Shown: in pieces, positions 964 to 25,053 of the stretch
How positions within the stretch are numbered: the stretch's first letter is position 1
Layout: each line of letters opens with the position of its first letter
Source of the DNA: a virus
UHGV virus genome: UHGV-1632499
Length of the DNA: 25,341 bases
Reading direction: 5' to 3' (one strand)
The notes under the pieces: model-generated
Told to the model about the DNA's origin: nothing
What the model saw: only the letters and a program-made list of their open reading frames with translations
Database searches by the model: none
Position numbers and translations under genes: made by a program

Positions 964-1905
964 TTAGTCTCTGCTAGCGAGCTCATACTGTGCAAGATAG
1001 TTCGCGTTATCAATTTTAGCAGATATCATCGCCGTTCTGATATCAGAATCGGATGGATAACCGCTTTTGACAATGATTGTCTTTGTACTGACCAATACTT
1101 GGTCAAGTAGACTTTTGGGCGTTCTATTGGATGGCTCTGTTACATCAATTTTTTTAATTTTTAGACCTCCAGAACCTTTTGGAAAAAGTTCAAGTAGTTC
1201 CTTAATAGCATCGGTGACAGAAGTTTTTAGATAGTTAAACCCTTGTTTTTTCGGGCGAATCCGACCTCGCATATTTAATCTTAGATGCGACCCGCCCATA
1301 CCAACAACCATGTCAATAATTTCATTAGCTAAAGGGTTTTTAATCTTATAATTAGCTTTGTTAAAGTTTCTTGGAGCAGCAACTATAAGATCGAAACTAC
1401 GTAGGATATTTCCGTCCTCAAGCAGTTCCTTCATGCTCTCTTGTTTCCAAATGGCTTCAAAAGTGACGCTTTTTAAATCAGTTTTGTTATACAAAATGAA
1501 TGCCAGATCATTTACTTTGGGCCCTATATGGTTGAGGGTCATAGCTAATAAGTCCGTTTCGTAGTAATAGATAAAATATGTTCTTTCAACTACAGAATCT
1601 TTATCATTTAAAGGAATTGTTCTCTCACTACCTGTAGCATCCTCGATGAACGGTAGTAGGCATTCCCTTCTCCACGATACGTAACCAAAGTAACATTGCA
1701 GTGTGGTATCTTTTTGAAGAATAACTAACTTTAACCCTCGATTTGGGGTGTCTGTTGTGTAAGTTATTGGAAAAGTTACAGTATCTGCTGTGGTCATTTG
1801 CTCAAAGGCTAGTTTTGCAGCAGATGTGCCATCTTTTTTGCTTCCATTACCAGTGAAAAAACCAACTCTCACTCGCCTGGTTTTATTCTTATTTTCTGTA
1901 CTCAT
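964..1905 (-). CDS. Hypothetical 313-aa soluble protein of unknown function; first gene of the antisense two-gene cargo operon
   Basis: Long uninterrupted ORF on the minus strand, followed 21 nt later by the membrane-protein gene (operon-like spacing). AT-rich. No motif I can assign; no GS...DxD nucleotidyltransferase signature, no obvious nuclease or ATPase motif. Confidence 0.7.
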   Translation of the reverse strand: MSTENKNKTRRVRVGFFTGNGSKKDGTSAAKLAFEQMTTADTVTFPITYTTDTPNRGLKLVILQKDTTLQCYFGYVSWRRECLLPFIEDATGSERTIPLNDKDSVVERTYFIYYYETDLLAMTLNHIGPKVNDLAFILYNKTDLKSVTFEAIWKQESMKELLEDGNILRSFDLIVAAPRNFNKANYKIKNPLANEIIDMVVGMGGSHLRLNMRGRIRPKKQGFNYLKTSVTDAIKELLELFPKGSGGLKIKKIDVTEPSNRTPKSLLDQVLVSTKTIIVKSGYPSDSDIRTAMISAKIDNANYLAQYELASRD

Positions 1906-2531: not shown

Positions 2532-3014
2532 ATGCAGGTACTAAATTCCCAGCGTAAAGCTTTCCTCGATATGGTGGCATGGTCAGAAGGAACGGATAAC
2601 GGGCGACAACCGACACGTAACCACGGTTATGACGTTATTGTCGGAGGTGAACTGTTCACTGATTACTCCGATCACCCTCGCAAACTTGTCACGCTAAACC
2701 CGAAACTTAAATCAACAGCCGCAGGACGTTATCAGCTTCTTTCACGCTGGTGGGATGCTTACCGTAAGCAGCTTGGGCTGAAAGACTTCTCTCCAAAAAG
2801 CCAGGATGCTGTGGCATTGCAGCAGATTAAAGAGCGTGGTGCTTTACCGATGATTGATCGCGGCGATATCCGTCAGGCTATTGATCGTTGCAGCAATATC
2901 TGGGCGTCATTGCCGGGCGCTGGTTATGGTCAGTTCGAACATAAGGTTGACAGCCTGATTGAAAAATTCAAAGAATCGGGCGGAACGGTCAGAGAAATTC
3001 AGCTATATGAGTAG
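2532..3014 (+). CDS. R: Endolysin, lambda R-type lytic transglycosylase
   Basis: Near-identical over most of its length to lambda R as I recall it ([134 protein letters not shown]). AAGGAG RBS upstream. Confidence 0.95.
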
Positions 3015-3528: not shown

Positions 3529-4311
3529 TTGAAACGTATATGGATATTCTATATGAAAAGAAAAAAATTAGAAGGTCCCGGGTGTGAATCATATGAAGGG
3601 TTAGATGTTGAATATTATATTGATTCCGAAACGGGGGAATTTAAAGCGGTTTATACATTCAATAATGAAATTGTAGATCGCATAAAATTGAGTGGGCGTA
3701 TTGCCGATAGAGCATCTTCACTGTCCCTAATTCATAGGGACTTAAAAAGTGCTAAAGAGTGGTACCAAATAGCTAATGAACTGGCAGGGAGAAATGAATT
3801 AAGGACAGATGGCAAGTTATACGGGAATATACTTGATCTAGATTTATCAAGTGAAATTAGAGCGTTATTTGTGGCAAGCCTAACGTTTTATGGTAAAGCT
3901 TTCTCTGAAGCTAAAGGGAGAAAGTTAAAGATGGAGCGTGATTGGCTTGATTCTGAATATTTTGGGTTGCATGACTGTATTATTAACTACAGGCATAATT
4001 TTGCAGCACATAGCGGCAACCAAGACTATGAGTCAGCAGAAACTTCATTGTTACTAATAAGGAAAAATGGGAAAACATTTTATCAAGCAGTGACAGATAG
4101 AAAACAACTGAGCATGATTGGTGTCGAGGACGAGCATGTTGATATGATTAATTTATTTGAACATGCGATACAGGTTGTTGAGAAAAAATATAATGAAACA
4201 TTAGAGAGAATTAGAACCTATGTCATGCAAAAGAGTTATTCTTTTTGGTGTTTAGCTGCCACAGGGAAAGATCCCGTCAATTTAGATAAGTTAAATAAGA
4301 AGAAAAAATAA
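3529..4311 (+). CDS. Hypothetical 260-aa protein; AT-rich orphan cargo gene between spanins and the packaging module
   Basis: Strongly AT-rich and lysine-rich ORF unlike its neighbours, followed by its own terminator. ORF track start at 3529 is a TTG; the first ATG is at 3553 (MKRKKLEGPG...). No family recognised. Confidence 0.65.
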   Translation: MKRIWIFYMKRKKLEGPGCESYEGLDVEYYIDSETGEFKAVYTFNNEIVDRIKLSGRIADRASSLSLIHRDLKSAKEWYQIANELAGRNELRTDGKLYGNILDLDLSSEIRALFVASLTFYGKAFSEAKGRKLKMERDWLDSEYFGLHDCIINYRHNFAAHSGNQDYESAETSLLLIRKNGKTFYQAVTDRKQLSMIGVEDEHVDMINLFEHAIQVVEKKYNETLERIRTYVMQKSYSFWCLAATGKDPVNLDKLNKKKK

Positions 4312-4390: not shown

Positions 4391-4741
4391 ATGCCACCAC
4401 GAACCCCAAAAGCCTGCCGTGTTCGCGGCTGCCGCTCTACAACCACAGACCCGTCAGGCTACTGCGAAAGCCACAAAAGCGAAGGCTGGAAGCAATACAA
4501 GCCAGGTCAGTCCCGTCATCAGCGCGGTTATGGTTCGAAGTGGGACGCTATCCGCGCGCGTGTGCTGAAGCGTGACAAAGGTTTATGTCAGTTATGTCTG
4601 CGTGCCGGTGTGGTGCGTGAGGCGAAAACCGTTGACCACATCATCCCTAAAGCGCATGGCGGCACTGATGCCGACTGTAATCTGCAGAGTCTGTGTTGGC
4701 CGTGTCATAAGGCGAAGACGGCCCGTGAACGGTTAAAGTGA
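4391..4741 (+). CDS. HNH homing-type endonuclease associated with the terminase
   Basis: Cys-rich N-terminus (CRVRGCRSTTTDPSGYCESH), HNH core (DHIIPKAHGG...NLQSLCWPCH), and position directly upstream of the terminase small subunit as in HK97-like packaging modules. Confidence 0.85.
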   Translation: MPPRTPKACRVRGCRSTTTDPSGYCESHKSEGWKQYKPGQSRHQRGYGSKWDAIRARVLKRDKGLCQLCLRAGVVREAKTVDHIIPKAHGGTDADCNLQSLCWPCHKAKTARERLK

Positions 4742-4866: not shown

Positions 4867-5361
4867 ATGGCTGGAACGGCGGGGCGTTCCGGGCGTCGCC
4901 CCAAGCCAACGGCGCGCAAGGCGTTGGCCGGAAACCCCGGCAAGCGAGCCCTGAACAAAGATGAACCTGTTTTTACGCCCATCAAAGGTGTTGAGCCACC
5001 GGAGTGGTTCGCAGAAGAAGATCTCCCTCTCGCCACGATCATGTGGCAACTGACAACCAAAGAACTCTGCGGTCAGGGCCTGCTGTGCGTGACTGACCTG
5101 GCGGTACTTGAGCGGTGGTGCGTGGCCTATGAGTTCTGGCGACGTGCCGTGAAAAATATTGCCAGACAGGGCAACACCATCACCGGTGCAATGGGCGGCA
5201 GGCTCAAAAACCCGGAGCTGACCGCCAAGAAAGAACAGGAGTCCGAGATGAGCAGCACGGGGGCAATGCTCGGACTCGACCCCAGCAGCCGCCAGCGTCT
5301 GATAGGCCTGGCGGGGCAGAAGAAAGCCACTAACCCGTTTCTGAAAATCATCGAATCATGA
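4867..5361 (+). CDS. Terminase small subunit
   Basis: [27 protein letters not shown]... is a typical small-terminase N-terminus. AGGAG lies 8 nt upstream of the ATG at 4867 (ORF track starts at a GTG at 4858). Stop overlaps the terL start. Confidence 0.85.
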
Positions 5362-7091
5362 GCCGGAAATCTTACCCCAACGTAAATGCTGCCAATCAGT
5401 ATGCCCGTGATGTCGTGCGCGGAAAGATTGTGGCCTGCCAGTTTGTGATTCAGGCCTGCCAGCGCCATCTTGATGACCTGATGGCGGAAAAAAGTAAGTC
5501 GTTTCGTTACCGCTTCGACAAGGACCTGGCTGAACGGGCCGCCAAATTTATTCAGCTGTTGCCGCACACCAAGGGTGAGTGGGCATTCAAGAGGATGCCC
5601 ATCACGCTGGAGCCGTGGCAGCTCTTTGTGATCTGCTGCGCGTTTGGCTGGGTCAATAAAGGCTCCCGGCTGCGCCGCTTCCGTGAGGTGTATACCGAAA
5701 TCCCCCGTAAGAACGGCAAATCGGCAATCTCTGCCGGTGTTGCCCTGTATTGTTTTGCCTGTGATAACGAGTTTGGCGCGGAAGTGTATTCCGGTGCCAC
5801 GACAGAGAAACAGGCGTGGGAAGTCTTTCGCCCGGCGCGACTGATGTGTAAACGCACACCCATGCTGACGGAAGCGTTCGGGATTGAGGTTAACGCCTCA
5901 AACATGAATCGTCCGGAGGATGGCGCGCGGTTTGAACCGCTGATCGGTAACCCCGGTGATGGTTCATCACCCCACTGTGCGGTGGTGGATGAATATCACG
6001 AGCACGCCACCGATGCGCTTTACACCACGATGCTTACCGGGATGGGGGCGAGACGTCAGCCACTGATGTGGGCCATTACTACTGCCGGGTACAACATTGA
6101 GGGGCCGTGCTACGACAAGCGACGGGAAGTTATCGAGATGCTCAACGGGTCGGTACCCAACGATGAACTGTTCGGGATCATCTATACCGTTGACGAAGGC
6201 GATGACTGGACCGACCCGCAGGTGCTGGAAAAAGCTAACCCGAATATTGGCGTGTCGGTTTATCGCGAATTTTTGTTAAGTCAGCAGCAGCGTGCGAAAA
6301 ATAACGCCCGTCTGGCAAACGTCTTTAAAACAAAACACCTCAATATCTGGGTGTCGGCGCGTTCGGCGTATTTCAACCTGGTGAGCTGGCAGAGCTGCGA
6401 GGATAAATCACTGACCCTTGAGCAGTTCGAGGGGCAGCCGTGCATTCTGGCCTTTGACCTGGCGCGTAAGCTGGATATGAACAGCATGGCGCGACTTTAT
6501 ACCCGCGAGATTGACGGTAAAACGCATTACTACAGTGTGGCCCCGCGTTTCTGGGTACCGTATGACACGGTGTACAGCGTCGAGAAAAATGAAGATCGCC
6601 GGACAGCCGAACGCTTTCAGAAATGGGTGGAAATGGGCGTCCTGACCGTTACCGATGGTGCGGAGGTGGATTATCGCTACATCCTCGAGGAGGCCAAAGC
6701 GGCGAACAAAATCAGCCCGGTCAGTGAGTCACCCATCGACCCCTTCGGGGCGACCGGGTTGTCACATGACCTTGCTGATGAAGGCCTGAATCCCGTTACT
6801 ATCATTCAGAACTACACCAACATGTCCGACCCGATGAAAGAGCTGGAAGCGGCAATTGAATCGGGGCGCTTTCATCATGATGGCAATCCCATCATGACCT
6901 GGTGTATCGGCAACGTGGTCGGCAAAACCATTCCGGGTAACGATGATGTGGTGAAGCCCGTCAAAGAGCAGGCGGAAAACAAAATCGACGGTGCAGTTGC
7001 GCTGATTATGGCGGTTGGCAGAGCCATGCTGTACGAGAAAGAAGACACGCTGTCTGACCACATTGAGTCCTACGGGATCCGCTCGCTTTAA
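5358..7091 (+). CDS. Terminase large subunit (ATPase and nuclease)
   Basis: 577 aa, with a Walker A-like PRKNGKS, an acidic VVDEYHE motif, and a C-terminal nuclease-like region. Order terS-terL-portal. Confidence 0.95.
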
Positions 7092-12403: not shown

Positions 12404-12574
12404 ATGTTTGTCAAACCTGTTAAAGGGCGGTCAGTTCCTGACCCTGCCCGCGGCGACCTTTTGCCCGCCGAAGGGCGAAATGTTGACGAGAACAACTACT
12501 GGCTGCGCCGTGAAGCAGCGGGTGATATCCGGCGCGTGAATAAAAAGGTGAACACCGATGACGATAAGTTTTAA
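12404..12574 (+). CDS. Small conserved protein preceding the tail sheath (DUF2635-like)
   Basis: 56-aa ORF absent from the ORF track (under 60 aa): MFVKPVKGRSVPDPARGDLLPAEGRNVDENNYWLRREAAGDIRRVNKKVNTDDDKF. GAGGA RBS at 12395-12399. Resembles the small protein I recall upstream of Mu-like sheath genes. Its 3' end overlaps the sheath start. Confidence 0.5.
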   Translation: MFVKPVKGRSVPDPARGDLLPAEGRNVDENNYWLRREAAGDIRRVNKKVNTDDDKF

Positions 12575-14054
12575 CACCATTCCGTCGAATACGCTGGTTC
12601 CGCTGTTTTATGCGGAAATGGATAACCAGGCGGCGAATACTGCACAGGACAGCGGAGCATCGCTGCTGATTGGTCATGCCAATAACGGTGCAGAGATTGT
12701 TGCCAACAGTCTGGTACTGATGCCGTCGGCAGACTATGCACGCCAGATTTGTGGTGCGGGAAGTCAGCTGGCGCGTATGGTCGAGGCTTATCGCCAGACT
12801 GACCCGTTTGGCGAGCTGTATGTGATTGCCGTTCCTGAATCCACAGGCGCGGCGGCAACGGTTACGCTGACGGTGACCGGGGCGGCAACCGAAACCGGCA
12901 CGGTGAATGTGTATGTGGGACGTACCCGCGTGCAGGCTCCGGTGACCAACGGCGATAACGTCACGACGATTGCCAGCAGTATCCAGGATGCCATCAATGC
13001 CGTTCCGGCCCTGCCGTTTACGGCTTCATCTTCGGCAGGCGTGGTCACACTGACCGCGCGTCATAAGGGGCTTTGCGGGAATGAAATTCCTGTCAGCCTC
13101 AATTACTACGGCTTTGGTGGGGGCGAAGTGCTGCCAGCGGGCGTACAGATTGCCGTGGCGACGGGTACCGCCGGAACGGGTGCTCCGGTTCTCACCGGCG
13201 CGGTGGCTGCAATGGCGGATGAGCCGTTTGATTATATCGGCCTGCCGTTCAACGACACGGCCTCCGTTAACACGCTGGTGACCGAGATGAACGATACCAG
13301 CGGTCGCTGGAGCTATGCGCGTCAGCTGTATGGTCATGTGTATACGGCAAAGATCGGCACGCTGTCAGAACTGGTGACCGCAGGTGACCAGTTTAACCAG
13401 CAGCACATTACCCTGGCGGGGTACGAAAAAGAGACTCAGACGCCTGCCGACGAACTGGCGGCAAGCCGTACCGCCCGCGCAGCGGTGTTTATTCGCAACG
13501 ATCCGGCACGTCCCACGCAGACCGGTGAGCTGGTGGGTATGCTGCCTGCGCCGAAGGGGAAACGGTTCACGATGACCGAACAACAGACCCTGCTGTCTCA
13601 TGGCGTGGCAACGGCGTATGTCGAAAGCGGGGTACTGCGCATTCAGCGTGATGTCACCACGTACAGGAAAAACGCTTACGGGGTTGCGGATAACAGCTAC
13701 CTAGACAGTGAGACTCTGCATACCAGCGCGTATGTACTGCGCAAACTGAAATCCGTCATTACCAGTAAGTACGGGCGTCACAAGCTTGCCAGTGACGGTA
13801 CCCGCTTTGGTCCCGGTCAGGCGATTGTCACCCCGGCGGTGATCAAAGGGGAACTGCTGGCAACCTACCGTCAGCTTGAGCGTGCGGGGATCGTGGAAAA
13901 CTACGAACTGTTTAAGCAGTACCTGGTTGTGGAGCGTGATGCCAGCGATCCGAACCGCCTGAACACGCTGTTCCCGCCTGACTATGTTAACCAGTTGCGT
14001 GTCTTTGCCGTGGTTAACCAGTTCCGTCTTCAGTATTCAGAGGAGTCCGCATAA
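12558..14054 (+). CDS. Contractile tail sheath protein (Mu gpL-like)
   Basis: 498 aa, directly upstream of the tube gene; size and order typical of Mu-like myovirus tails. Confidence 0.85.
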   Translation: MTISFNTIPSNTLVPLFYAEMDNQAANTAQDSGASLLIGHANNGAEIVANSLVLMPSADYARQICGAGSQLARMVEAYRQTDPFGELYVIAVPESTGAAATVTLTVTGAATETGTVNVYVGRTRVQAPVTNGDNVTTIASSIQDAINAVPALPFTASSSAGVVTLTARHKGLCGNEIPVSLNYYGFGGGEVLPAGVQIAVATGTAGTGAPVLTGAVAAMADEPFDYIGLPFNDTASVNTLVTEMNDTSGRWSYARQLYGHVYTAKIGTLSELVTAGDQFNQQHITLAGYEKETQTPADELAASRTARAAVFIRNDPARPTQTGELVGMLPAPKGKRFTMTEQQTLLSHGVATAYVESGVLRIQRDVTTYRKNAYGVADNSYLDSETLHTSAYVLRKLKSVITSKYGRHKLASDGTRFGPGQAIVTPAVIKGELLATYRQLERAGIVENYELFKQYLVVERDASDPNRLNTLFPPDYVNQLRVFAVVNQFRLQYSEESA

Positions 14055-14679: not shown

Positions 14680-14828
14680 CGGCTGAATACCTCACTGATC
14701 GCTTCTTTGACTGCGCCAGCTACTGGCGCATTAATCCCTTCGAATTGCTGAATATGCCGATCAGTGAAATTCCCTTGCTGGTCAGTCAGGCAAACAGGAT
14801 AGAGCAGGAGAAACGCACACATGGCTGA
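14410..14828 (+). CDS. Tail assembly chaperone, long form made by programmed -1 ribosomal frameshift
   Basis: Slippery heptamer T TTT TTC at 14661-14667 in the zero frame. The -1 frame (ORF 14646..14828) stays open to 14828, overlapping the tape measure start. This is the conserved chaperone arrangement upstream of tape measure genes. Confidence 0.55.
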
Positions 14829-16653
14829 ATTTGAGCTTAAGGCGTTGATCACCGGTGTCGACAGGCTTTCTCCCGCGCTGTCGAAAATGCAAAAGAAAAT
14901 CCGGGGATTTAAATGCCAGGCGGAAGAAGCGTCACAGGGTGGGCTGGCGCTTGGTGGAGGACTGGCAGCGGGGCTGACGCTTTCCCTGAAATCTTATGCC
15001 GATCAGGAAAACGCCGCTACCGGGCTGAAAGTCGCCATGATGGATGCGAACGGCGAGGTTGGAAAGAGCTTTCAGGACATCAATAAACTGGCTATTGGCC
15101 TGGGTAACCAGCTACCCGGTACAACGGCTGATTTCCAGAACATGATGCAGATGCTGGTGCGTCAGGGGATCCCGGCAGAAAACATTCTGGGTGGTGTGGG
15201 TAAAGCGACAGCTTATCTTGCGGTACAACTGAAAAAAACACCGGAAGCGGCTGCTGAGTTTGCTGCAAAGATGCAGGATGCTACCGGAACGGCGTCAGAA
15301 GACATGATGGGGCTGTTCGACACTATCCAGAAGGCGTTTTATCTGGGCGTTGACGATACCAACATGTTGTCCTTCTTCACTAAAACCAGTTCTGTTCTGA
15401 AGATGGTGAACAAGGACGGTCTTCAGGCTGCACAGAGCCTTGCCCCCATCAGCGTCATGATGGATCAGATGGGGATGAACGGGGAGTCGGCAGGTAATGC
15501 CCTGCGAAAAGTTATCCAGTCCGGATTAAGTGTTAAGAAAATCAGGGACGTCAATAAAGTCATGGCCCGCCAGAAACTCGGGGTACAGCTCGATTTTACT
15601 GACGGCAAAGGAAGTTTTGGCGGTCTTGATAACATGTTCAGGCAACTGGCAAAGTTGCGAAAACTGACCGACGTTAAGCGAACAGGCGTACTTAAGGCAA
15701 TATTTGGTGATGATGCCGAAACCCTTCAGGTGGTCAATGCCCTGATCGATAAAGGAAAGGATGGCTACGATCAGATCCAGCAGAAGATGAATAAACAGGC
15801 CAGCCTGAATAAACGTGTTCAGGCTCAGCTTGGTACGCTGTCCAACCTGTGGGAGGCAATGACGGGGACCGCAACTAACGGTCTTGCAGCTATTGGCGGC
15901 GCATTTTCTGGTGACGCTAAAAATATCACGCAATGGCTGGGGGAGTTGGGGGAAAAATTCACGAAGTTTGCGGATGAAAATCCCCGGGTTATTCGCGGCG
16001 TCGTCGGGCTTGCTGCCGGTCTTGCGATTCTGAAACTGGGATTGATGGGCGTTGGCGGTGCCATCAGTATTGTCAGCAGGATCATGTCGATGACGCCGAT
16101 TGGCATGATTGCGACGGCGATAGCCCTGGCTGCGGGATTAATTATCACTAACTGGGATGTTGTCGGACCTTATTTTAAGAAACTCTGGGAAACCATTGGT
16201 CCTTATTTTGAGGCTGGCTGGGAACTCCTTAAGAAAGTTTTTGCCTGGTCGCCGCTGGGGATGGTGATCAATAACTGGGGGCCGGTTGTTAAGTGGTTTC
16301 AGGATATGTGGGACAAGCTGAAGCCAATTATTGAGTGGTTTACCGACAGTTCCGGTGACACGGTCGATGCCATTAACTCTGCGCAGTGGGGCGCGGGTGC
16401 TTATGATGCTTATGGGGCGGGAATACCGACGCGGGGATACACACCTTATCCGGCGGTAGATCCGGCTCAGTCAAACAACGCCTCCGATGCCACAGGCCCG
16501 AATCCCTTCATGATTAACAAAGCTATCGCGCCAAAAGTTGATGGCGAGATCAAGGTTTCATTTATGAATATGCCACCAGGTATGCGGGTTACGGAAACAC
16601 GTTCCAGTGGCATTGATATTAATCACGATGTTGGGTACACCAGATTTAGGTAA
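14821..16653 (+). CDS. Tail tape measure protein
   Basis: 610 aa, alpha-helical and Ala/Gly-rich, with a hydrophobic segment (VVGLAAGLAILKLGLMGVGGAISIV) and a Trp-rich C-terminal region. Follows the chaperone pair. Confidence 0.9.
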   Translation: MAEFELKALITGVDRLSPALSKMQKKIRGFKCQAEEASQGGLALGGGLAAGLTLSLKSYADQENAATGLKVAMMDANGEVGKSFQDINKLAIGLGNQLPGTTADFQNMMQMLVRQGIPAENILGGVGKATAYLAVQLKKTPEAAAEFAAKMQDATGTASEDMMGLFDTIQKAFYLGVDDTNMLSFFTKTSSVLKMVNKDGLQAAQSLAPISVMMDQMGMNGESAGNALRKVIQSGLSVKKIRDVNKVMARQKLGVQLDFTDGKGSFGGLDNMFRQLAKLRKLTDVKRTGVLKAIFGDDAETLQVVNALIDKGKDGYDQIQQKMNKQASLNKRVQAQLGTLSNLWEAMTGTATNGLAAIGGAFSGDAKNITQWLGELGEKFTKFADENPRVIRGVVGLAAGLAILKLGLMGVGGAISIVSRIMSMTPIGMIATAIALAAGLIITNWDVVGPYFKKLWETIGPYFEAGWELLKKVFAWSPLGMVINNWGPVVKWFQDMWDKLKPIIEWFTDSSGDTVDAINSAQWGAGAYDAYGAGIPTRGYTPYPAVDPAQSNNASDATGPNPFMINKAIAPKVDGEIKVSFMNMPPGMRVTETRSSGIDINHDVGYTRFR

Positions 16654-16685
16654 AGACGAACAGGGAGGGTCGCCCCCCCCTGAAC

Positions 16686-17132
16686 TTACTGTGCGAACAC
16701 GCAATTTCGGCCTGATGGGGAGCCGACAATTCTGGACATTTTTTCGCAAATAACAGTTACTTGTTCTCCTTTTTTAAGAGCAGCAGCTGTTGATTTTTCA
16801 GAGTCTTGCATCTCCATTCTTGCTGGCATGAATTCATTTTCAGTTCTGAATTTAATAATTATAGAGTCAGTAAAGTCCTTATCAATGGATTGTACGATAC
16901 CTCTAACGGCGATTAATTTACCTTTTAACTGTTCATCGGTAGCGACTTCATTTTCTTCATACTCTTTAAACAGCTGTCGAGCAGTAGTGTTGTAGATTTC
17001 TTTTTGCGGTGCCGCAGCTTCCGTATCGGATGAGTATGAAGAATTAGAGCCTTTATCGTTATTGCCTGCAAAATATCCAATAATCACCAACCCGATGAAA
17101 ATATATAAAATCCATTTTAATAATTTCTTCAT
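16686..17132 (-). CDS. Membrane-anchored OB-fold-like protein (tRNA_anti-like family resemblance); antisense cargo gene inside the tail operon
   Basis: N-terminal signal anchor MKKLLKWILYIFIGLVIIGYFAG, then a soluble domain with KGKLIAVRGIVQSIDKDFTDSIIIKF...KGEQVTVICEKM, which resembles tRNA_anti-like OB-fold proteins as I recall them. AT-rich. AAGGTGA RBS. The last roughly 15 codons run into GC-rich phage-like sequence. Confidence 0.7.
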   Translation of the reverse strand: MKKLLKWILYIFIGLVIIGYFAGNNDKGSNSSYSSDTEAAAPQKEIYNTTARQLFKEYEENEVATDEQLKGKLIAVRGIVQSIDKDFTDSIIIKFRTENEFMPARMEMQDSEKSTAAALKKGEQVTVICEKMSRIVGSPSGRNCVFAQ

Positions 17133-17194
17133 GTTATCACCTTAATGCTAATAATTTATATAGTTACAAATGGTAATGGCTACCACTACAAATT

Positions 17195-18571
17195 ATGGCA
17201 TTACCAGTAAATATTACTACTGATAATAAATATGGGACTTATATGACGTGGAAAGACAGGCTTCAGGATGCGTCATTTCGCAGCGTGCCGTTTAAGGTTG
17301 AAGAAGAAAGTGCGGGAACCGGTCGCCGTGTGGAAACACATGAATACCCGAACCGCGACAAGCCCTATACCGAAGATCTGGGAAAAGTCACTTTCCGCCC
17401 GTCCATCACAGCTTATGTGGTGGGAGATGACTGCTTTGACCAGCGCGATCGCCTGATTGAAGCGCTGAATAAACCCGGTCCCGGCACGCTTGTCCACCCG
17501 ACATATGGTGAGCTGAAAGTCTGTGTTGACGGGGAAGTTCGGGTCAGCACATCGAAAAGTGAAGGGCGTATTGTCCGCTTTGACCTGAAGTTTGTCGAAG
17601 CAGGAGAACTCTCTTACCCCACATCAGGTGCGGCGACGGCGCAGACGCTGATGTCATCCTGTTCTGCACTGGATGACTGCATCAGTGACAGCTTCAGCGG
17701 TTTCAGTATCGATGGTGTGGCGGATTTCGTGCAGAACGACGTTATCGGTAATGCCAGCATAATGCTGGGGTATGTTTCTGATGCGATGAAAGTGGTGGAT
17801 TCTGCCGTATCGGATGCCGCCAGGCTGTTGCAGGGGGATATCTCGGTACTTCTGCCGCCGCCATCGTCAGGCAAAAATTTCGTTGAGCAGGTGCAGAAAA
17901 TGTGGCGTACCGGGAAACGCCTTTATGGTAACGCCAGCGACCTGGTCACCATGATCAAAACGCTTTCCGGTGTCAGCCTCGGCAGCGATCTGCAACCGCG
18001 CGGCGTCTGGAAAACGGACAGTAAAGCCACCGCCACGGCGACGCAGCAGCGTAACGTGGTTGCCAGCACCCTTCGTACGACCGCAATCAGCGAAGCGGCG
18101 TATGCCGTCACCCGATTGCCTGCGCCAACAACTTCCGCGGTGATGCAGAATTCCGCAGTGGGGCAGGCAACAACACCCGCGCAGAGCACTGGCTGGCCTT
18201 CCGTCACGCATCCGGCACTGAACAATGCACCGGCGGTGAAAAACACGGTTGACCTGCCGACGTGGGAAGAACTGACTGACATTCGCGACACACTGAATAC
18301 GGCAATTGATAAGGAGTTGTCCCGTACAACCAGCGATGCGCTGTTTCTGGCGCTGCGCCGGGTGAAAGCAGATCTGAATGCGGATATCAACACGCGCCTT
18401 GAACAGTCTGCACGGATCATTCAGCGCACACCGGATGAGGTTTTACCCGCGCTGGTGCTGGCGGCGACCTGGTTTGATAACGCGGCGCGTGACGCGGACA
18501 TTATCCGGCGTAATGCCATTACGCATCCCGGCTTTGTGCCGGAGATCCCTCTGAAGGTGCCAGTGCAATGA
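17195..18571 (+). CDS. Mu N-like DNA circulation protein (tail component)
   Basis: N-terminal region (WKDRLQDASFRSVPFKVEEESAGTGRRVETHEYPNRDKPYTEDLGK) resembles the Mu N DNA-circulation domain. Position after the tape measure. Start is uncertain; an alternative ATG lies at 17243. Confidence 0.75.
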   Translation: MALPVNITTDNKYGTYMTWKDRLQDASFRSVPFKVEEESAGTGRRVETHEYPNRDKPYTEDLGKVTFRPSITAYVVGDDCFDQRDRLIEALNKPGPGTLVHPTYGELKVCVDGEVRVSTSKSEGRIVRFDLKFVEAGELSYPTSGAATAQTLMSSCSALDDCISDSFSGFSIDGVADFVQNDVIGNASIMLGYVSDAMKVVDSAVSDAARLLQGDISVLLPPPSSGKNFVEQVQKMWRTGKRLYGNASDLVTMIKTLSGVSLGSDLQPRGVWKTDSKATATATQQRNVVASTLRTTAISEAAYAVTRLPAPTTSAVMQNSAVGQATTPAQSTGWPSVTHPALNNAPAVKNTVDLPTWEELTDIRDTLNTAIDKELSRTTSDALFLALRRVKADLNADINTRLEQSARIIQRTPDEVLPALVLAATWFDNAARDADIIRRNAITHPGFVPEIPLKVPVQ

Positions 18572-22243: not shown

Positions 22244-23029
22244 ATGCATCGTATAGACACGAAAACCGCGCAGAAGGATAAGTTCGGCGCGGGTAAGAAC
22301 GGTTTTACCCGTGGTAACCCCCAGACCGGCACACCTGCCACCGATCTGGATGATGACTACTTTGACATGTTGCAGGAAGAACTCTGCAGCGTGGTGGAGG
22401 CATCCGGTGCCAGCCTGGAGAAGGGGCGGCATGACCAGCTGCTTACCGCGCTTCGTGCGCTGCTGTTAAGCCGCAAGAATCCGTTTGGCGATATCAAATC
22501 GGATGGCACTGTGCAAACGGCTCTCGAAAACCTTGGTTTGGGAGAAGGCTCAGCGTTACCCGTTGGTGTGCCTGTTCCGTGGCCTTCAGCCACACCACCA
22601 ACAGGCTGGCTGAAATGCAACGGTGCACCTTTTTCTGCCGAAGAGTACCCAAAACTGGCAAAGGCTTACCCAAAGTTAAAATTACCGGATTTGCGCGGTG
22701 AGTTTATTCGCGGGTGGGATGATGGGCGAGGTGTTGATTCCGCGAGACTGCTACTTTCAAGTCAGGCGGCATCTATCCTTGAACATAACCATGAAATGCA
22801 TGGATGGACAGGGAACCCACTCATGGCTAGAGATGTTTATTCATCCGGTTCATCCGTATTTGCGGTGCAGTTGAGCATTGGCGATGGCGGGTTATTGTAT
22901 TCGTGGAAGGATGGGAGTGGAACAACAAATGACAGTAAACGAATGGATAGAACAAATCATGTCAGTTCCGGCGCCGGTGATGGTAGCCCGCGAAACATTG
23001 CATTTAACTACATTGTGAGGGCTGCATAA
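22244..23029 (+). CDS. Tail fibre protein: constant N-terminal part fused to the currently expressed variable C-terminal segment
   Basis: 261 aa, GGAG RBS. The C-terminal part carries GWLKCNGA...[19 protein letters not shown] and HNHEMHG motifs typical of phage fibre tips. A gix-like crossover site lies inside the gene at 22521-22546. Confidence 0.85.
22521..22546. other. Left recombination site for the serine invertase (hix/gix-like), inside the tail fibre gene
   Basis: CTCTCGAAAACC TT GGTTTGGGAGAA: 12-2-12 layout with the AAAACC/GGTTT core typical of Hin/Gin/Cin/Pin sites. The 15 bp on its inner side (TTGGTTTGGGAGAAG) are repeated in inverted orientation at 24404-24418. Confidence 0.6.
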
Positions 23030-23632
23030 ATGGAACAGGCTATTTTGGGAAAAGACGGTTACGCTTTAAATGATGGGGAAATCATCGTACATAACTATGA
23101 TGGCGAAACGCGGGAATATATTTCCACATCAACTGAATATCTTGCGGTTGGCGTCGGTATCCCGGCATGTTCTTGTTTAGATGCACCAGTTACACATAAA
23201 GCTGGTTATGCAATCTGCCGTTCTGCAGATTTTAACTCATGGGAATATGTGCCAGACCATCGCGGTGAAATCATCTATAGCACCGAAACAGGAGAATCGA
23301 AAGAAATCACAGCTCCGGGTGATTACCCTGATAATACAACCACTATCGCCCCGTTAACGCCATATGATAAATGGGATGGTGAGAAATGGGTGACGGATAC
23401 TGAGGCACAGCATAGTGCCGCAGTAGACGCGGCAGAAGTAAAGCGCCAGTCACTGATTGATGCAGCAATGGCTTCCATTAGTCTGATTCAGCTGAAATTA
23501 CAGGCCGGGCGGAAACTGACGCAGGCAGAAACAACCCGGCTTAACGCTGTGCTGGATTACATTGACGCGGTGGCGGCAACAGATACCAGCACCGCGCCGG
23601 ATGTCATCTGGCCTGAACTGCCGGAGGCGTAG
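23030..23632 (+). CDS. tfa: Tail fibre assembly protein (chaperone for the current fibre variant)
   Basis: 200 aa, start adjacent to the fibre stop, conserved Tfa-type C-terminus (...TSTAPDVIWPELPEA). Confidence 0.85.
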   Translation: MEQAILGKDGYALNDGEIIVHNYDGETREYISTSTEYLAVGVGIPACSCLDAPVTHKAGYAICRSADFNSWEYVPDHRGEIIYSTETGESKEITAPGDYPDNTTTIAPLTPYDKWDGEKWVTDTEAQHSAAVDAAEVKRQSLIDAAMASISLIQLKLQAGRKLTQAETTRLNAVLDYIDAVAATDTSTAPDVIWPELPEA

Positions 23633-24044
23633 GCCATTCAATATCTGGCGCACCGGAAGTATCGACCAGTTCCAGTGCGTCCAGATAATCCAGCCACAAA
23701 TTATATTGCGCCAGTTCCTCACCTTTCAGCCGGCCAATAGCCGCTTTACCAGGCCATTGTTTACTGTTCATATAATCGTTGGCCTGATTAATCAGTTGCT
23801 GCTTTTCCAGTTCGGCTGCAGCAATCTGTTCCTCATGTGTTGGTGGTGGAATTTCAGACCATGCAGGAAAACCATTTTCTCCAGCGATACGGATTTTTCC
23901 TTTCGGCGGTAATCCGGAAAACTCAATATACACTTGCTCATCAACTTCAACAGCATCATCTGGCCATGAGTCAGCTTGAGTGTAATCCTCTTTCATCTCC
24001 AGCGGATAGAAAGAGTTTGTAGTCGCGGAATATATGTAATTCAT
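23604..24044 (-). CDS. tfa: Alternative tail fibre assembly protein (chaperone for the inverted-orientation fibre)
   Basis: 146 aa on the minus strand with the same C-terminal motif (...TSGAPDIEWPTPPAVQAR). GGAGTG RBS. Its 3' end overlaps the + strand tfa by 29 nt. Confidence 0.85.
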   Translation of the reverse strand: MNYIYSATTNSFYPLEMKEDYTQADSWPDDAVEVDEQVYIEFSGLPPKGKIRIAGENGFPAWSEIPPPTHEEQIAAAELEKQQLINQANDYMNSKQWPGKAAIGRLKGEELAQYNLWLDYLDALELVDTSGAPDIEWPTPPAVQAR

Positions 24045-24065: not shown

Positions 24066-24416
24066 TTAACAGCCTAACGCTAAAAATGAAGCGCCGAGGC
24101 CAGGAGTACTGGCTCTGGATATAAATTTAACCGGGTCGGGACTAAAACCTGCACAGGCAATATAACCAACAGCCCCGCTATCTGGTGTGTAGTCTTGTGA
24201 GACCAAAACACGCAGACATCTGTTTGGAAATGCAATCGGGAAATGGGTTACTACATCCTGTGCAATGCCTGGTGCGCCGATTGAGCCCCACTGAAGAATA
24301 AAACCTGATGGTAATTTTTGATATCCAGTACCTGAAACAGAAAGCGTGAAGCTACCCATATCAGGTATCTGATTCGCCCCTGTCCCTACATTCCTTTTAG
24401 CCGCTTCTCCCAAACC
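24066..24416 (-). CDS. Alternative tail fibre variable C-terminal segment; promoterless, expressed only after inversion
   Basis: The minus-strand frame is open from the crossover core to the stop at 24066. After inversion it would continue in frame from the constant fibre part (...NLGLGE shared, then [19 protein letters not shown]...). ORF track lists 24066..24413. Confidence 0.7.
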
Positions 24417-24430
24417 AACCTTTCAAATAT
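24405..24430. other. Right recombination site for the serine invertase (hix/gix-like)
   Basis: Minus-strand reading ATATTTGAAAGG TT GGTTTGGGAGAA; the inner half-site and core match the left site, the outer half-site differs. Confidence 0.55.
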
Positions 24431-24489: not shown

Positions 24490-25053
24490 ATGATTTACGG
24501 GTATGTTCGTGTATCAACAAATCATCAGGATACAGAGTTGCAACGTCTTGCACTTGAGTCAGCTGGCTGTGAGCGAATTTATGAAGAATATGCCAGTGGC
24601 AGAACAGCTAATCGCCCTGTGTTAAAGGAATTAATTTCGGTGATGAAAAGTGGAGATGAGTTGATTGTCTGGAAGCTAGATCGGATAGGGAGAAATGTGC
24701 TACATGCGCTATTGATGTTTCAAAATCTGCACGAAAAAGGCGTTAATTTTCGGAGTATTACAGATGGCGTAGACCTGAAAACAGCAAGTGGTCGCTATAA
24801 TTTCCGTAATATTCTTTCTGCTGCGCAGTATGAATCTGATTTGAATAGCGAGCGAACTTTAGCTGGTTTGGCTATTGCCAGATCCAAAGGCCGGATTGGT
24901 GGGCGTAGACCGAAGTTTAGCGACGAGCAGTGGCAACAGATGGGAGCGCTCATAGCGGCAGGGAAATCACGGCGTTATGTTGCACGTATCTATAACGTTG
25001 GGCTATCAACCCTATATAAACGATTTCCTGTTACTGGCATTCAAACGAAATAA
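24490..25053 (+). CDS. pin: Site-specific serine recombinase, DNA invertase (Pin/Gin/Hin/Cin family)
   Basis: 187 aa with YVRVST (catalytic Ser), VWKLDRIGR, NFRSITD, GRIGGRRPK and a C-terminal helix-turn-helix ending STLYKRF; collinear with Gin/Hin as I recall them. Adjacent to the invertible fibre segment. Confidence 0.95.
   Translation: MIYGYVRVSTNHQDTELQRLALESAGCERIYEEYASGRTANRPVLKELISVMKSGDELIVWKLDRIGRNVLHALLMFQNLHEKGVNFRSITDGVDLKTASGRYNFRNILSAAQYESDLNSERTLAGLAIARSKGRIGGRRPKFSDEQWQQMGALIAAGKSRRYVARIYNVGLSTLYKRFPVTGIQTK

Follow-up and report, generated by a model that had tools for sequence, protein, structure and literature searches.

The closest described relative of the gene reported here is sie2009 of Lactococcus phage Tuc2009, whose product is an injection blocker. 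It is said to have been described by McGrath et al. in 2002 between the integrase and repressor genes. In the Tuc2009 record this place is held by orf2 (L099 1339-1860), which, from its position, we take to be sie2009. The window analysed here is UHGV virus genome UHGV-1632499, taken as one whole stretch of 25,341 nucleotides. In it, a minus-strand gene lies between the tail tape measure gene and a Mu-N-type gene, and encodes a membrane-anchored OB-fold protein. This OB-fold gene is very probably a moron of the Sie2009 family. The characterised Sie2009-type members that we found are all from lactic acid bacteria, and what is new here is a Gram-negative member encoded in a tail operon.

In Streptococcus phage TP-J34, the surface protein Ltp is a lipoprotein with helix-turn-helix (HTH) repeat domains; HK97 gp15 is not known to have an OB domain, and its gene is co-oriented with the tail genes, whereas the OB-fold gene is antisense to them. 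Together with P22 SieA, they are analogues acting at the injection step (PMC10883804, PMC3594210, PMC4155818): Ltp blocks DNA injection (PMC3952083, PMC4155818) and targets the tape measure protein (PMC4155818), and HK97 gp15 blocks genome entry (PMC3594210). The HK97 gene (YebO-like) is also a moron of the tail operon, placed beside the tape measure gene, with deviant GC content and its own transcription signals; it encodes a small inner-membrane protein and has homologues outside intact prophages (PMC3594210). Its position makes it a precedent for a superinfection-exclusion moron in a tail operon. No sequence relation between HK97 gp15 and the OB-fold protein was seen in a Pfam scan, which involves no direct pairwise comparison and in which PF12869 was the only match above threshold. 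Like Ltp, the OB-fold protein is prophage-encoded and is predicted to have a membrane-tethered extracytoplasmic domain; fold and anchor differ, and the OB-fold protein does not match the Pfam Ltp family. Receptor-blocking lipoproteins of the Cor/Llp type have a lipobox cysteine that the OB-fold protein lacks.

A Gram-negative member of the Sie2009 family

The OB-fold protein matches PHROG 8545, 'superinfection exclusion Sie-like', at E 1.5e-49, and Tuc2009 orf2 matches the same family (phrog_8545) at E 1.7e-79. Both also match Pfam PF12869 (tRNA_anti-like) above its 23.5-bit cut-off, the OB-fold protein with 69.5 bits over residues 2-130 (E 2.9e-19) and orf2 with 43.3 bits. A comparison of the family alignment with orf2 by hhalign gave a probability of 97.7% (E 1.3e-12, 136 columns). 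An earlier note on this DNA, written from the letters alone, had called the gene a plausible superinfection-exclusion factor, and the family and domain shared with orf2 lend that proposal support beyond plausibility.

The two proteins are built alike, with a short basic N-terminus, one transmembrane (TM) helix, a linker rich in Ser, Thr and Gly, and an OB domain, about 105 residues long, that contains the motif N..A.D..(Y/M)KGK in both. Both are carried by temperate phages, and proteobacterial relatives of the OB-fold gene hold the same slot as sie2009, downstream of a repressor gene. They differ in that identity is only about 28% and that Sie2009 lacks the invariant cysteine pair of the E. 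coli protein. The host of the OB-fold gene is Gram-negative, which would place the domain in the periplasm, and the gene is antisense in the tail operon of a contractile-tail prophage, while sie2009 is in the lysogeny module; the 'lysogeny module' wording of PMC7693887 is consistent with this placement. In the literature, no paper was found that ties Sie2009 to PF12869 or to an OB fold, and searches for PF12869 or tRNA_anti-like with phage, and for OB fold with superinfection exclusion, returned no paper on a role in Gram-negative phages.

Architecture and predicted topology

Three segments were recognised in the protein, all encoded on the minus strand.

17064..17129, minus strand: N-terminal signal anchor, residues 2-23 (MKKLLK and a 17-residue hydrophobic helix)
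17007..17063, minus strand: Ser/Asn/Thr-rich low-complexity linker, residues 24-42, disordered, of varying length among homologues
16689..17006, minus strand: OB-fold domain, residues 43-148, predicted to be periplasmic

An AF2 model, built with a 23-sequence alignment, has a mean predicted local distance difference test (pLDDT) score of 87. It contains a helix over residues 2-22, a disordered stretch with pLDDT below 50 at residues 26-37, a block at 41-50 averaging 86, and an alpha-capped beta-barrel with pLDDT 94-98 over residues 51-148. The top Foldseek match in the PDB is 3F1Z (E 2e-5, TM-score 0.64 on the target, 17-19% identity), a structural-genomics entry from Klebsiella pneumoniae labelled 'putative nucleic acid-binding lipoprotein'. 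This best structural match is also an envelope-tethered OB fold; it is a lipoprotein, not a TM-anchored protein. The next matches were the anticodon-binding OB domains of class II aminoacyl-tRNA synthetases, and RPA/Stn1, and among BFVD structural neighbours of the model, one bears the name 'Host cell surface-exposed lipoprotein'. Both a tRNA_anti-like OB fold and an N-terminal signal anchor had been read from the sequence beforehand: a profile search has now returned the former as PF12869, with the AF2 barrel and 3F1Z in agreement, and the latter is borne out by the hydrophobic stretch after MKKLLK and the helix modelled over it. Other searches added little. At E up to 1, Pfam gave no match besides PF12869 and a KOW below threshold, an NCBIfam scan gave a noise-level match only, and a sequence search of the PDB gave only spurious coiled-coil matches. 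PADLOC had no match for the OB-fold protein, a result that is uninformative since Tuc2009 orf2 gives none either.

The OB domain carries the motifs NEVAxD...KGK...QSIDKDF and the invariant pair Cys129/Cys144. Its net charge is about -1 and its pI 5.6 (family range of charge -2 to +4); it is thus not basic, which argues against a dedicated nucleic-acid binder. Neither a lipobox nor a conserved AxA cleavage site is present in the anchor. The first 128 residues hold no cysteine at all, so that there is no lipobox cysteine, and the only lipobox carrier is a distant homologue, P0067, with LISGC in place of the anchor.

Several observations agree on the topology. KK..K precedes the TM helix and the segment after it is acidic, P0067 replaces the anchor by a lipobox, and homologues P0081 and P0099 have an N-terminal zinc ribbon of cytoplasmic type before the TM helix. 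The cysteine pair is invariant in the proteobacterial clade and suits an oxidising periplasm, and the OB domain of TcdC, whose profile matches PF12869 (PMC3575817), is experimentally extracellular (bioRxiv 10.1101/872283). From these we infer a type-II (N-in, C-out) inner-membrane protein with its OB domain in the periplasm, where Cys129 and Cys144 would form a disulfide bond.

A selected coding sequence of deviant composition

What the window holds is late-region DNA of an SfV/SfI/SfII-like prophage of E. coli/Shigella, whose tail is contractile and of the Mu type. Genes of the window include those for a sheath protein (12558-14054), a tube protein, a chaperone, the tape measure and Mu-N-type proteins, the baseplate and tail fibres. 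At the locus itself the features are as follows.

14821..16653, plus strand: tail tape measure gene, left flank (610 amino acids; PF10145 PhageMin_Tail; annotated so in SKA5, SfII and RefSeq); stop codon at 16651-16653
16654..17230, minus strand: whole moron cassette, about 577 bp, low in GC, delimited by alignment with the SfII, SfIV, SKA5 and 720R4 junctions
16686..17132, minus strand: coding sequence of the OB-fold gene, a Sie2009-family, membrane-anchored OB-fold protein (148 amino acids; ATG start; stop codon at 16686-16688)
17243..18571, plus strand: Mu-N-type DNA-circulation/tail protein gene, right flank (442 amino acids; PF07157 DNA_circ_N)

The minus-strand, AT-rich open reading frame (ORF) that the earlier note had placed at 16686..17132, between the tape measure and DNA-circulation genes, was recovered together with its drop in GC. 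Over 16700-17250 GC is 0.24-0.43, compared with 0.50-0.64 in the flanking tail genes; for the gene itself the value is 0.37, against about 0.55 in the flanks. Compared with four diverged homologues, its synonymous sites are saturated (proportion of synonymous differences, pS, 0.74-0.86), whereas the nonsynonymous proportion (pN) is 0.11-0.25 in the OB domain and in the whole gene, and reaches 0.31 in the anchor and linker, above the OB domain. With pS saturated and pN low, the antisense ORF is a selected coding sequence, and we conclude that purifying selection acts on a genuine gene. It has many homologues at 40-73% identity. Among 1.84 billion cluster representatives, a profile search found 7,795 relatives at E up to 1e-3, counted as representatives of 50% clusters, and 197 at E up to 1e-30; some of the relatives have tandem OB domains.

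The GC-rich 3' end had been thought to be foreign, its last 15 or so codons having been replaced on insertion. This idea is refuted, as the C-terminus in question, ...CEKMSRIVGSPSGRNCVFAQ, is the best conserved part of the family. Within ...MSRIVGSPSGRNCVF, R134 and C144 are invariant, as is C129 just before it, and G137, P139 and G141 are nearly so. The 3' end is GC-rich because of the Gly, Pro, Ser, Arg, Cys and Ala codons found there, and it is native to the OB-fold gene.

The longest-ORF listing starts the N-type gene at ATG 17195. This start was ruled out by the one at 17243 (ATGACGTGGAAAGAC), which is conserved in the SfII, SKA5 and RefSeq records and is the one RefSeq uses. Since the N-type gene starts at 17243, the non-coding stretch upstream of the antisense gene is 17133-17242. 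The right boundary of the AT-rich upstream region announced at 17133-17194 accordingly moves to 17242.

A moron at an exchangeable junction

No gene lies at the tape-measure/N junction of SfII, SfI, SfV or SfIV, which have a short spacer only. In SfII this spacer measures about 55 bp, and it is the intergenic region of SfII-type phages whose place the cassette takes; the spans of the junction records differ (1475 versus 2001 bases, and about 973 versus 1501 bases). The gene is thus inserted relative to close relatives, as had been supposed. Nor is it a conserved tail component of all relatives, as most of them lack it and deletion and frameshift alleles occur. One such allele (L036-L040, about 5001 in each) has a 142-bp deletion that removes the promoter region, the ribosome-binding site (RBS), the start codon and the anchor; in another (P0002), a frameshift at the A-run before MSRIVG leads to a 161-residue product reading through the hairpin. 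Such decay alleles, in otherwise intact tail modules, show that the phage can do without the OB-fold gene.

Of 5,426 complete E. coli genomes, 1,093 have the tail junction. The OB-fold cassette (at least 98% identity) is present in 70-74 of these 1,093, about 7%, and in 74 of 1,101 matching E. coli records; E. coli T16R, L725 and FDAARGOS_1373 are examples with the identical cassette. A prophage with the OB-fold gene is found in about 1.3% of complete E. coli genomes. A census of junction contents was made on an evenly spaced sample of 60 of the 1,101 records.

empty junction: 25 of 60 (roughly 40%)
cargo of SKA5 size: 13 of 60
225-residue lipoprotein: 4 of 60
OB-fold gene: 4 of 60
PH-domain protein: 2 of 60
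176-residue TM-anchored protein: 1 of 60
N side only matched: 11 of 60

Phage 720R4 has yet another cargo, a 162-residue protein with a signal peptide. In all, at least six unrelated occupants were seen at this junction: the OB-fold protein, two signal-peptide proteins, the 225-residue lipoprotein, the 176-residue TM-anchored protein and the PH-domain protein. The occupied intervals are 16654-17242 in the window, L001 2236-2748, L004 1881-2369, L015 810-1187, L016 845-1522, L017 785-1462 and L018 631-1161. All cargoes are low in GC (0.31-0.42), and five of the six types carry a signal peptide, a lipobox or a TM anchor. Except for the OB-fold gene, which is also the only antisense cargo, the cargoes belong to PHROGs of unknown function.

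Diverged alleles of the OB-fold gene are found at the same junction in the same orientation, at 71% (L005/L044) and 73% identity (L041-43). In L044 the gene is 71% identical to that of the window, yet the tape measure protein is at 90% and N at 97.5%; with flanks nearly identical to those of the window, the allele must have been swapped in. The L041-43 and Scandinavium L100 loci are different, their flanks having diverged as far as the gene (tape measure 70-81%, N 67-72%). No direct repeats flank the cassette, and with these absent we saw no sign of transposition or site-specific insertion. To judge from the alleles and their flanks, cassettes are likely exchanged by recombination in the conserved flanks.

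The OB-fold gene shows presence or absence among close relatives, deviant GC and a terminator-like hairpin of its own, which are the marks of a moron. We conclude that it is a moron in the Juhala/Hendrix sense, a self-contained, horizontally exchanged unit lying antisense between the tape measure and N-type genes. A tblastn search of deposited phage genomes found only two weak relatives, in Burkholderia phage Carl1 and in a Klebsiella phage, and isolated phages with the gene are rare in the deposited collection.

Transcription signals

17137..17143, minus strand: RBS AAGGTGA, 4 nt before the ATG
16661..16682, minus strand: terminator-like stem-loop, 3 nt after the stop codon, CAGGGGGGGG-CGA-CCCTCCCTG, then UUCGUCUUU
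17192..17200, minus strand: candidate extended -10, TGcCATAAT, 59 nt upstream of the ATG, without a good -35

The strong RBS that had been pointed out, AAGGTGA, is indeed present at 17143..17137, and its core AGGTGAT is kept in three diverged alleles (window, L005/L044 and L041). Besides the RBS, the candidate -10 is the only upstream block conserved in these three (TGcCATAAT, TGcTATAAA and TGcTATAAA). A promoter had been called possible within 17133-17194; the best candidate, the conserved block, sits at 17200..17192, at or just beyond the right edge of that interval. The longest-ORF ATG of the N-type gene, at 17195, falls inside this predicted -10. An 8-nt inverted repeat around the -10 (17171-17178 / 17199-17206) was dismissed as due to chance, being absent from the other alleles.

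A terminator scan found the stem to have 9 pairs, 7 of them G-C, followed by a partly U-rich tail. The predicted fold reaches -19.8 kcal/mol on the minus strand (z -2.45), compared with -13.6 on the plus strand (z -0.8), where there is no U tract. Given this asymmetry, the hairpin should end the antisense transcript and not late tail transcription. Both the 71% and the 73% allele preserve the GGGAGGG/CCCTCCC stem, with different loops, and every homologue examined in other contexts is followed by a hairpin of its own. The empty SfII junction (L002 2170-2208) has an annotated plus-strand rho-independent terminator between tape measure and N; in cassette-bearing phages this is replaced by a hairpin strong on the minus strand only (window 16661-16682). 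No RNA family of Rfam was found anywhere in the window.

Relatives outside the tail junction

In Pantoea, Serratia and Pectobacterium prophages, relatives come right after a 186-type CI repressor gene, in the same orientation. In Burkholderiales and Xanthomonadales, P2-like prophages have an operon of an HTH repressor, a membrane protein and the OB gene, convergent with gpD. A third recurring place is beside an AriA/Old/GajA-type ATPase. The slots behind repressors match that of sie2009 in Tuc2009 and those of TcdC homologues in Lactobacillus and Leuconostoc phages, found between cI and int (PMC3575817). A gene expressed in lysogens would be expected in such positions.

The Pantoea homologue (L006-L009, about 5830-6000) adjoins copCD-yebY and could pass for an ordinary chromosomal gene. 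This was ruled out by the DNA upstream, which encodes the C-terminal 50 or so residues of a 186-type CI; the homologue is then followed by a 267-residue multi-TM protein, the same as in intact prophages. The CI fragment marks the locus as a prophage remnant that kept its Sie-like gene.

Proposed superinfection exclusion and the alternatives

Superinfection exclusion appears to be the most likely function of the OB-fold protein, a reading that we favour with fair rather than high confidence. Homology to Sie2009 and analogy with Ltp, HK97 gp15 and P22 SieA suggest how it might work. A promoter of its own would drive the gene in a lysogen, against a silent late operon, and the antisense orientation and strand-specific hairpin would allow expression while leaving late tail transcripts unterminated. 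Once made, the protein would enter the inner membrane, its linker of about 20 residues holding the disulfide-capable OB domain in the periplasm. There, the domain could bind a component of the tail-derived conduit (tape measure or ejection protein), or a host factor needed by it. Incoming phages would still adsorb normally, but would fail when their tape measure or ejection proteins have to assemble a DNA conduit through the periplasm and inner membrane, and their genome would stay out.

A number of points weigh against this reading. The assignment of orf2 as sie2009 comes from its position in the record, and the homology is remote (28% identity over the aligned region). PF12869 is very large, with its 7,795 representatives, so that function need not be conserved, and TcdC, in the same Pfam family, is tied to toxin regulation and not to phage exclusion (PMC3575817, bioRxiv 10.1101/872283). 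Literature searches turned up no lysogen expression or phage-resistance phenotype for the OB-fold protein or for Gram-negative members. The proposed target is drawn by analogy from Ltp, HK97 gp15 and P22 SieA. As for expression, a sigma-70 -35/-10 scan finds no minus-strand promoter upstream of the gene, its sole minus-strand match (16885..16858) lying within it, and the extended -10 at 17200..17192, our candidate promoter, is weak by consensus. The U tract of the hairpin is short, and in two diverged junction alleles the tails are not U-rich.

One alternative is a lysogenic-conversion envelope protein unrelated to phage exclusion. Its periplasmic OB domain would bind a component of the host envelope, such as peptidoglycan, an oligosaccharide or a porin domain, and thereby change how the host tolerates stress, its signalling or its virulence, as other periplasmic OB proteins or TcdC-like ones might. 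OB folds bind oligosaccharides too, the domain is near-neutral, and PF12869 is huge and mostly uncharacterised. TcdC of Clostridioides difficile has an N-terminal membrane anchor and an extracellular C-terminal domain with a PF12869-type OB fold (bioRxiv 10.1101/872283). It differs by a coiled-coil dimerisation region and is discussed as a regulator of toxin expression, and its tie to the OB-fold protein is through the Pfam family alone. Persistence of relatives in decayed prophages (Pantoea L006) could mean a benefit to the host apart from the phage, although it is equally expected of a defence gene. We nevertheless regard conversion as unlikely. The sole linked member with a direct phenotype, Tuc2009 orf2 taken as Sie2009, is an injection blocker that shares the full architecture, and relatives are found repeatedly at the classical Sie slot behind repressors or beside defence-type ATPases.

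Much less probable still is abortive infection of the AbiP/PdpSau type, in which a cytoplasmic OB domain would sense phage nucleic acid and trigger membrane damage. The resemblance is in the build, as AbiP and PdpSau also have an N-terminal membrane helix and an OB-like nucleic-acid-binding domain, are encoded by prophages or plasmids, and act against phages (PMC10127798), and in names, namely the Pfam 'tRNA_anti-like' and the 'putative nucleic acid-binding' label of 3F1Z. Their domain is cytoplasmic, basic and active after entry, whereas that of the OB-fold protein is predicted to be periplasmic, and its net charge of -1 contrasts with the positively charged PdpSau C-terminus (PMC10127798). 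By the positive-inside rule, the N-terminus is cytoplasmic and the OB domain lies on the far side of the membrane, where the lipoprotein and zinc-ribbon-TM variants place it as well; the cysteine pair and the extracellular TcdC domain (bioRxiv 10.1101/872283) point the same way.

Finally, a tail-assembly, injection or lysis helper for the phage's own cycle, encoded antisense, is hardly credible, since despite its place in the tail operon beside the tape measure gene, kept even where tail proteins have diverged to 67-81% (L041-L043, Scandinavium L100), the gene runs against late transcription, nothing occupies the junction in viable SfII, SfI, SfV and SfIV and in about 40% of sampled E. coli prophages, promoter/anchor deletion and frameshift alleles sit in otherwise intact tail modules, and homologues occur in lysogeny modules of unrelated phages.

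Other features of the window

The window contains a Mu-G/Gin-type invertible tail-fibre segment, delimited by 20-nt inverted repeats at 22528-22547 and 24404-24423 (90% complementary, 1,856 nt apart). Between the repeats lie an alternative C-terminus for the fibre (Gp53-like_C) and a gene for tail-fibre assembly on the opposite strand, and a serine invertase gene (Resolvase + HTH_7) adjoins the segment. The genes at this place are at 23604-24044 (minus strand), 24066-24413 (minus strand) and 24490-25053 (plus strand).

Near the endolysin gene (2532-3014), two low-GC ORFs at 964-1905 (minus strand) and 3529-4311 (plus strand) lie in DNA with a regional GC of 0.35-0.40. Neither has a match in Pfam or PADLOC, their PHROGs (7651 and 8440) are of unknown function, and one of the two lies antisense to the genes around it; these are probably further morons. 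An HNH endonuclease gene (4391-4741) lies upstream of a 577-residue ORF (5358-7091), presumably the large terminase gene, and HNH-terminase pairing is common in cos phages.

Significance

The OB-fold gene is a well-behaved moron and not a new kind of system, and as such will not surprise a specialist. RefSeq already labels it by the generic 'OB-fold protein', which could give way to a more informative, still provisional label. The junction hot spot supplies five more envelope-directed or unknown cargo families for exclusion screens.

A broader proposal can be offered only tentatively, and we hold it to be doubtful as a whole: that the tape-measure/N junction of SfV-like prophages is a dedicated exchange site for envelope-targeted anti-phage cargo, and that the anchored PF12869 proteins (Sie2009, the E. 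coli protein and possibly TcdC) are one pan-bacterial family of injection blockers. If this is true, PF12869 blockers would work outside the cytoplasmic membrane, capturing tape measure or ejection proteins as they arrive, or else the DNA.

That Sie2009, the E. coli protein and TcdC share one Pfam family suggests a testable origin for TcdC. As Tuc2009 orf2 scores above the PF12869 threshold and the TcdC profile is reported to match this family, TcdC, encoded in the C. difficile pathogenicity locus, may descend from a Sie-type protein by domestication, a link for which we found no paper in the literature. The Sie2009-type injection block has remained unexplained since 2002, and the E. coli homologue, of which there are many natural alleles, would give a tractable model for it, in a setting that allows the use of phage panels, escape mutants in tape measure or ejection proteins, topology reporters and Dsb mutants.

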